12,500 bases of DNA from Chlamydiota bacterium (GTDB taxonomy: Bacteria; Auribacterota; Tritonobacteria; UBA1439): assembly GCA_037133055.1 (NCBI GenBank), contig JBAXOY010000091.1, positions 1-12,500 of the forward strand, read 5' to 3'. A program made the position numbers. This document shows, piece after piece, positions 6,001-9,000 of this stretch. Every line of letters begins with the position of its first letter. The first letter of the stretch is position 1.

Positions 6001-9000
6001 CGGGCGAGCGCGGCGATGCGCGGAGGGCCGTTGGCGGCGGGCACCTCGAGGTAGACGCCCGGGGGGGGCGCCCCGCGGGGGAGAAGCCGGAGCAGCCGGC
6101 CGGCGGGGAGTAGGATGAAGAGGTCGGGGTCTCCGGCGCTCAGGAGCGCGCGGAGGAGGGGAGGGAAGGCCGCATCCCCGCGCCCGGGCTCCGCGAAGAG
6201 CCTCTTCCCTGACAGGTGAAAGGAGGTCACCAGCCCGCAGAGCTTTTGATACCCCTGGAGGTTCCGGGCGAGGAGGACGAGCCGCGCATCTTCGCCCCGG
6301 AGCTCCGCTCCGATGATCGGCGTAATCCCCGCGGCCCGCGCGGCCAGATAGAACGGCACGGCGCCGTAGAGCCCGTTCGTGTCGGTGAGGGCAAGGGCTT
6401 TCATCCCGAGCGCGGAGGCGCGGGCCACGAGGTCGCCGATGTCGCTCGCCCCCTCGAGGAAAGAGTGGTTGCTGTGGCAGTGAAGATGGGCGAAGTTATC
6501 CATGCGAAGGCGATATACGCAGCAGCGCCGTCCCCCCGGCGATCGCCCCGTCGCCGTACCGGTCCCGGATACGGTCCATCGCCGCGTAGAGGCTTTTGCG
6601 TCTGCCCCGGTCCGGGCCGCCGAACGGCAAGGCGGGCTGCCATCCGCTCCCGGCGAGGCCCGAGAGGCGGACGCCGACTAGGCGCAGCTTCAGCCTGCGC
6701 GTCCATGCGTTCCCGAGGAGTTCCCCGGCGGCCGAGAAGACCTCTCCGTCCATGTCGGTCGGCTCGCGGAGCGTGACGGAGCGGGTGACGGTCTGGAAAT
6801 CCGCGTAGCGGAGCTTGAGCGTCACGGTCCGCGCCTGAGTCCCCGCCCCGCGGAGAGACCGGCAGGCGCTTCCCGCGAGCTTCCCGAGTTCGGCCAGTAT
6901 CCTCTCCCGGTCGAGGATGTCCCCGGGAAAGGTGACCTCGCGGCTCACGGACTTCGACCCGGCGGGCGACGTCACCGGGGATGCGTCTTCGCCCCGCGCC
7001 GCCCGCGCCAGCCACGCCCCGGCCGGGCCGAGCGCGGCGGTGAGTATCCGCTCGCCGAGCAGGCGGAGATCGCCGACCGTGGCGGCGCCGAGGAGGCGGA
7101 GCCGCTCCCCCGCGCGGGGACCGACGCCGGGGATGGACCGGACGGGGAGCGGCGCGAGGAATGCCTCTTCGCGTCCGGGGAGCACCCGGCAGATGCCGTT
7201 CGGCTTTGCGCAGGCCGAGGCGATCCGCGCCACGAGCTTGTTCGATGCGACGCCGATGGATGCGTCGAGCTTCAGGTCCCTCCTGATCTCGTGGTGGATC
7301 CGCTCCGCGGCGGAGAACGGGTGACCGAAGAGGGCGCGGCAGCCGGTCATGTCGAGGTAGGCCTCCTCCATGGAGAGGGGCTCCACGTCGGGCGTGAAGC
7401 GCTCGAGCGTCTGGAAGAGCCCGGCCGATACGGCCGCGTAGTCGCCGAAGCGGAGGGGGAGGAAGACGCAGTCGGGGCAGAGCCTCTTCGCCCGGGCGAG
7501 CGGCATCGCGGCGCGGACGCCCCGCCGGCGCGCCTCGTAGGAGGCCGAGGAGACCACCCCGCGGCGGGCCGGGTCGCCCCCGACGGCGACCGGGCGCCCC
7601 TTCAGCCACGGCCGCCGGAGCAGCTCGACCGAGACGAAGAACGCGTCCACGTCCAGGTGCAGTATGACGCGCTCCATAGTAAATATCCTTTTCACCACGG
7701 CAAGAATTGGTTACCGGTATTTCCTGAGCACCGCGACGACCACCCCCTGGATCGTCACCTCGGACGCGGGGAGGACGATCGGATCGAGGGCCGGGTTCGC
7801 GGGGATGAGCGTGACCATCCCCTTTTCCTGCCGGAACTTCTTCAGCGTCGCCTCCTCGTTGCGGATGAGGGCGATCACCGTCTCGCCGTTCCGGGCGGTG
7901 CGCCGTTTCTCGACGACGACGTAGTCCCCGTCGCGGATCCCCTCGCCGATCATCGAGTCCCCCCGGACCCGGAGGACGAAGGCGCTCCCCTTCCCGGCGA
8001 ACTCCTCCGGCACAACCATCGTCTCCCGGTCGGCGAGCGCCTCGATCGGCCTGCCGGCGGCGATCATGCCGAGGAGCGGGAGCTCGATGGCGGCGAGCCG
8101 GATATCCCCCGCCGGGACAAGCTCGATCGACCGGCTGCGGTGCTCCTCCCGGCTGATGGCGCCCTTTTTCTCGAGGTTGACGAGGTGTGTGTGCACCGTG
8201 GCGGGGGATCCGAGGCCGAACCTCTTCCCGATCTCACCGATGCTCGGGGCGTAGCCCCTCCGCGCGATGAACTCGTCCAGGTAGTCCAGTATCTGCCGCT
8301 GCCGCCGTGTAAGATGCATGGGGACCTCCTTTCGGCGTCCGTTGCCCAGTATCAGGATAGGCGAATAAAAAGCGAAAATCAAGGGCAAAAAAACATAACT
8401 GCTCAGAAGCCAGAATTCAGAAGTCAGGAGTCAGGAGTTAGAATGAGGACTTCAGCGACAGCATTTAAGGACTTGGGATACGGCGATGTTTCCGAGTTAA
8501 CGCGGTTACTCGAAGAGGTCAGCACTCTACTGGAAACTAGTTCGCGATCCATTCTGGATTCTGGCTTCTGACTTCTGACTACCTGAGTAGTTGCAAAAAA
8601 TACCATGCGACGGAAGTCAGAGTCTCATCATCCCCGCCAGCATTCCCGCCCCGAATCCCCGCCTGAGCCGGATCGCGCGCGCGGGGCAGATCTCGTTGCA
8701 GCAGTAGCAGAGGATGCAGCGGCGGTCTTCGATCCTGACCCGGCCGCCCTCGATGGAGAGCGCCTTCGGCCTCGGGGGGCAGACGCCGACGCAGGCGCCG
8801 CAGCGGGTGCACGCACGGCGCAGTATCCGCGGCCTGCGGGCGAACCAGCCCTTGATGGCCCGCTCGACGAAGGCGGGCATACACGCCGGCCCCTCGCGTC
8901 CCTCCGCCGGGACCGCGCGGAATCCGCTCACGCGCACGTCCCCGGCCTTCTCCCCCAGGATCTCTATCTCATCCTCCCGCGTTTTCCCGAGCCCCCGCTC

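Follow-up and report, generated by a model that had tools for sequence, protein, structure and literature searches.

The window analysed here, 12,500 nucleotides of contig JBAXOY010000091.1 from a bacterium that GTDB places in the Auribacterota, carries on its minus strand lexA followed by genes for a DinB-family polymerase and a second DNA polymerase III alpha subunit. The predicted promoter ahead of these genes holds a short direct repeat, for which an earlier note had proposed that it is a LexA box of a kind not described before. The locus thus raises two questions, namely whether the repeat is the operator of LexA, and, if so, whether it differs from the boxes that are already known.

The gene behind this promoter encodes a LexA with a DNA-binding domain (helix SPATVHTH, residues 38-45), an Ala88-Gly89 cleavage site and a Ser122/Lys160 dyad, and it was the single match in a genome-wide LexA profile search. 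In a FastTree tree, whose deep branches are weakly supported, this LexA is nested among those of Acidobacteriota; the nearest named sequences come from Ca. Aureabacteria, and the next from Vicinamibacterales and other Acidobacteriota. A search of plasmids gave no member of this LexA clade (best match 43%), and a PDB sequence search gave nothing closer than generic LexAs.

Of the two polymerases encoded downstream (Table 1), the DinB carries Glu instead of the usual Asp in its S-x-D-E motif (SMEE), as do all four family orthologs, and SIDE is kept in the unlinked dinB of family f3 of the same phylum and in some Acidobacteriota. As a partner of DnaE2, the protein may be weakened or resemble ImuB. 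The DnaE2 label itself rests on context, since the error-prone model PRK05672 scores 687 bits and stays under its cut-off of 939; another dnaE of the genome lies on contig C96. Convergent on dnaE2, the plus strand encodes a four-helix-bundle protein (TIGR02436) at 2640-3158, with low-complexity repeats on both sides.

Table 1. Features of the lexA-dinB-dnaE2 locus, in window coordinates
Feature	Position	Strand	Basis
Predicted -35 hexamer TTGATT, directly next to the first half-site	8377..8382	-	Inferred; under the scan threshold
Candidate LexA operator, half-sites TTCGC (8376-8372) and TTCGC (8365-8361)	8361..8376	-	Sequence, conservation, matrix
Predicted -10 hexamer TATCCT, 17 bp from the -35	8354..8359	-	Inferred (spacing; TATACT in orthologs)
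Shine-Dalgarno-like AGGAGG ahead of lexA	8325..8330	-	Sequence
lexA, 202 aa, Acidobacteriota-type clade	7711..8319	-	TIGR00498, 199.8 bits (cut-off 110.95); tree
DinB-family Y polymerase, 33 bp past the lexA stop	6496..7677	-	PRK02406 above cut-off; Pfam IMS
Second Pol III alpha (DnaE2-type); its start overlaps the stop of dinB	3303..6503	-	Pol III alpha domains

The candidate operator reads TTCGC-TTTTTA-TTCGC, that is, 16 bp with an 11-bp period and a T-rich 6-bp spacer. Its placement between the -35 and -10 hexamers, as given in the earlier note, agrees with the sequence: together with one C, the repeat exactly fills the 17-bp spacer of a promoter that appears to be sigma70-like. The CTA (8360-8358) included in the 19-mer pattern of that note overlaps the -10 hexamer, and the repeat proper is 16 bp long. 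A promoter scan left the lexA promoter uncalled, as it matches the consensus at 8 of 12 bases and the threshold is 9; close orthologs have better hexamers in an unchanged geometry, with TTGAY in seven of eight. The ATG of lexA is at 8319. Just upstream of the promoter, at 8403-8580, lie heptamer-like tandem repeats with long inverted arms (8403-8445 and 8550-8580) and a short reading frame between them, and a different hairpin repeat is found within the lexA leader of a related locus (L002). The lexA genes of Acidobacteriaceae (L214-L243) look leaderless, their ATG lying about 6-7 bp past the -10.

A LexA match was found in 21 of 31 relatives. At the eight close lexA loci, which represent three families and include the window, the exact repeat is present without exception, at varied distances (-57 to -163). 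It was not seen ahead of ten LexAs from other clades of the same phylum (L009-L018), one of which has only about 50 bp of upstream sequence. For a broader view, lexA loci were drawn from 80 named loci, the best 110 matches in 251 Acidobacteriota genomes and the best 30 of 117 in a family sample centred on Acidobacteriaceae, with six duplicates and loci with less than 120 bp upstream removed. Among the 184 loci whose LexA has this helix type, 77 carry the exact repeat (0.0 in shuffled sequences) and 159 carry it with at most one mismatch (0.6 in shuffles), counts that describe spread rather than independent trials, because the sampled genomes are related and not independent draws. The repeat is thus kept before lexA orthologs beyond chance, in line with the proposal that it probably serves this LexA lineage as SOS box and is common to many Acidobacteriota. 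The exact form is found at 27 of the 30 lexA loci of the Acidobacteriaceae family sample, and in the Vicinamibacterales-type loci, which make up 100 of the 184, the second half usually reads TTTGC (14 of 79 exact).

With respect to novelty, the LexA of Acidobacterium capsulatum is the obvious comparison. To judge by its title, a paper of Mazon and co-workers (2006, Microbiology 152:1109) reports its LexA box. These authors are said to have determined it by EMSA as GTTC-N7-GTTC, and to have found the recA of this species damage-inducible yet without a LexA box. One genome in our sample (G350) encodes, at locus L223, a LexA identical to WP_041839776.1, which is labelled Acidobacterium capsulatum. 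Within 1.5 kb upstream of this lexA, a single GTTC-N7-GTTC/GAAC-N7-GAAC occurs, at -29 and directly against the -10, where it overlaps half-sites TTCGC, TTCGG and TTCGC at -39, -28 and -17. Since this GTTC-N7-GTTC is in register with the window repeat and lies at almost the same position, the two boxes most likely constitute a single element that has been described from two ends. The claim that the box is new and differs from those in print is therefore not supported: the promoter of a LexA identical to the A. capsulatum-labelled protein has the reportedly published motif in the same place and register.

The two boxes have in common the TTC core, the 11-bp period of a direct repeat, its register and its position adjoining the lexA -10, and their cognate LexAs belong to the same Acidobacteriota clade and have a conserved, nearly identical recognition helix (SPATVHTH in the window, SLATVHKH in the A. 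capsulatum-labelled protein, at 46% identity overall). They differ in that the window has T and A at the positions of the two Gs; across the clade, the G is incidental and the GC after TTC nearly fixed. Furthermore, most of the Acidobacteriaceae sampled have the motif ahead of recA, and its range reaches another phylum. The genome with the A. capsulatum-type LexA also has, between imuA and a SRAP gene, a TTCGC pair that is exact and lacks the G. Its recA (L259) is preceded by a degenerate TTCGC-N6-TTCAC (16.5 bits) about 90-100 bp upstream, where most family members have a near-perfect site, and such a degenerate site may explain the reported observation of an inducible recA "without a LexA box".

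A similar comparison can be made with alphaproteobacteria, whose LexA box is given as GTTC-N7-GTTC with an 11-bp period (PMC8565304, PMC3323433, PMC9578287, PMC3091678). The TTC core, the period, the T-rich spacer and the SOS targets are alike. However, of the 159 lexA sites of the window's clade, 16 have a G before the first half, 36 before the second and 7 before both, and each half is followed by GC in 153. Of 32 Caulobacter boxes (PMC12700426, S3 Fig, counted by hand), by contrast, 30 start with G and 4 have GC after TTC. As far as the boxes, as opposed to the LexA proteins, are compared, the G is nearly invariant there and the bases after TTC vary, and the reverse is true in the window's clade. 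The window itself reads TTTC-N7-ATTC and so departs from the literal alphaproteobacterial consensus, which has G before TTC in both halves. For the window repeat and the A. capsulatum-type box, the shared core is TTC-N8-TTC, and the informative flank across the clade is the GC after TTC, not the preceding G.

These differences might be taken to mean that the box is unrelated to any published one and resembles GTTC-N7-GTTC by chance. The sharply different informative positions in Caulobacter would fit this, as would the absence of GTTC-N7-GTTC from all 29 recA upstream regions of the Acidobacteriaceae sample and the fact that the TTCGC form of the consensus was not found in the literature searched, although Mazon 2006, Erill 2006 and Erill 2016 lay outside that literature and may hold it. 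Yet the core, the period and the spacer all match, and at three loci (L221, L223 and L227), including that of the A. capsulatum-identical LexA, the lexA site itself reads GTTC-N7-GTTC, so that we regard an unrelated box as unlikely. What is novel is the consensus, in which G is rare and GC nearly fixed; a known SOS box is sharpened and its range widened.

Variation within the clade touches both the box and the recognition helix. LexAs with Asn in this helix go with TTCAC repeats in all 16 cases with a scored box, and rows without Asn comprise 79 TTCGC-type and 3 TTCAC boxes, 30 rows being unscored. In a number of Acidobacteriota (L141, L151, L155, L156, L158, L159, L163, L173, L192, L208), TTCAC-N6-TTCAC occupies the same promoter position, and their LexAs mostly have the helix Asn. 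When covariation was evaluated on a tree of 128 rows, thinned and with the helix columns left out, it came down to about one event (2 independent pairs, p 1), and it was dropped as statistical evidence. The LexA subclades with SYGTV (L198, L201, L205, L207, L210, L212, L213) and SxASV (L177, L185, L189) mostly have neither box.

If the repeat is a LexA operator, other SOS genes are the place to look for it. Upstream of recA, 26 of 29 regions in the Acidobacteriaceae family sample reach at least 15 bits, as compared to none of 29 in-gene controls; a reversed matrix reached this level in 10 of the 29, and these matches are probably a shifted reading of the same site. At the 26 recA sites, TTG is never found at -6, nor is the repeat ever followed by CTA. 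This bears out the view that TTGAC and CTA are promoter sequence that the operator does not need, a judgement that applies to the recA sites of Acidobacteriaceae and not to the window's own phylum, because the pattern used there required CTA. In the same family sample, nine of ten imuA 5′ regions have a site, mostly reversed. In family f3, where lexA, dnaE and dinB are unlinked, separate copies are found at lexA (4), dnaE (4) and dinB (2, reversed). Thus, the site recurs at recA and imuA in Acidobacteriaceae and at dnaE and dinB in the own phylum; with lexA counted, five kinds of SOS gene carry the repeat.

In the window's own family, the recA site is absent in four of four genomes, and a weight-matrix scan of the window's genome gave no second credible site. 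The suggestion of a small regulon therefore stands for this family but not for Acidobacteriaceae with their recA and imuA sites. The recA of the window's genome (G000:C189:817-1338) consists of the 3′ half only and directly follows an unrelated gene on the opposite strand, possibly as a result of mis-assembly.

Across the own phylum, the 19-mer search returned 27 matches in 15 of 61 genomes, and its reversed control 11. The matches lie at lexA (12), dnaE (4), dinB (2, reversed), SocA/Panacea genes (2) and elsewhere (7), the last group being smaller than the 11 of the control, and bar one in f21 they are confined to families f1, f3 and f13, all of which have this LexA clade. The two SocA/Panacea cases are near copies of the lexA promoter together with its box, ahead of a gene with this antitoxin domain in two genomes of the same genus (L252, G002:C37:935-953; L349, G001:C192:3229-3247), and the likeness of the promoters makes an SOS-controlled toxin-antitoxin locus possible. 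In a single case (L358, G409:C36:24647-24665), a 19-mer match overlaps the 5′ end of an open reading frame for a ribonucleotide reductase large subunit.

The distribution of these sites also bears on whether some other SOS regulator binds the repeat, or whether it is a promoter-spacer element for RNA polymerase or an alternative sigma factor. Its nearly always fixed distance to the -10 in lexA promoters could be read in this way, but at recA, imuA and dinB it is found in both orientations and outside the spacer, and in the own phylum it follows the families with this LexA clade, f21 aside. We hold such a role to be very unlikely.

Genome-wide, the bare 16-mer is not enriched (11 occurrences at spacer 6, 10-12 at spacers 5, 8 and 9), so that the significance of the repeat rests on its position and conservation. 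When the matrix is built without the window, the candidate operator still is the top match in the genome, at 29.6 bits as compared to 20.5 for the next; the next three matches have no SOS gene among the adjacent ORFs scanned (Hsp20, glycosyltransferase, ORFs without family). A chance repeat in an AT-rich intergenic stretch, which the 11 genomic copies might suggest, is refuted by the exact repeats at lexA, which shuffling does not reproduce, and by the recurrence at five kinds of SOS gene, and has next to no probability.

A second site at C40:24286 had been put forward in the earlier note. It is indeed present upstream of a PLD-SNF2 helicase gene, but its use as a second operator is unsupported: its 15.5 bits correspond to background, with 20 real and 21 control matches at that level, none of 25 homolog loci, a 61% ortholog among them, has a site of at least 16 bits, and the 7 own-phylum 19-mer matches that lie elsewhere are outnumbered by those of the control. 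A third weak half-site at +22 leaves an operator role there some small chance.

Taken together, it is highly probable that the repeat in the window serves as operator for the one LexA of this organism, a protein of the Acidobacteriota type, and we propose it as a candidate on the strength of position, conservation and recurrence. RecA-stimulated self-cleavage of LexA after DNA damage is the established SOS pathway. In this organism, a LexA dimer would bind the two TTCGC half-sites, which are arranged head to tail on the same face of the helix and one turn apart, and, by occupying the spacer between -35 and -10, would block sigma70 RNA polymerase. Upon DNA damage, self-cleavage at Ala88-Gly89 would free the promoter, and transcription of lexA-dinB-dnaE2 would then allow translesion synthesis.

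In this context, other known systems offer partial parallels. The LexA box of Balneolaeota is, according to PMC7739468, likewise a direct repeat, with a regulon centred on translesion polymerases, but as given there its sequence (TTACACATATTTTWTACATA) is unrelated to the window repeat. Operons of a Y-family polymerase and DnaE2 that have neither ImuA nor ImuB-C are described in PMC6511836, with examples from Streptomyces and Bacteroidetes; the window resembles them in that lexA shares one putative operon with dnaE2 and a Y-family polymerase.

If these observations are combined, the balance tips slightly towards a picture in which the LexA of Acidobacteriota and Aureabacteria reads nTTCGC and not GTTC, such that the boxes of acidobacteria and alphaproteobacteria would be sister variants and not a single motif, LexA would act on recA directly in most Acidobacteriaceae, and the A. 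capsulatum-type genome would retain no more than a degenerate recA site. This qualifies the "same box" argument by which acidobacterial lexA has been tied to its alphaproteobacterial counterpart. It is a refinement for SOS specialists, and not a new regulatory system. In practice, a search with GTTC-N7-GTTC misses nearly everything, finding 7 of the 159 lexA sites and no recA region among the 29, and the corrected consensus allows the SOS regulon to be mapped in Acidobacteriota and in the candidate phylum. Furthermore, the LexAs of the clade and their sites form natural pairs on which the origin of direct-repeat recognition by LexA can be studied. If the picture is true, the series GTTC, TTCGC, TTTGC and TTCAC, together with the changes in the helix, would amount to a testable recognition code, one that describes the reading of direct repeats by a symmetric LexA dimer.
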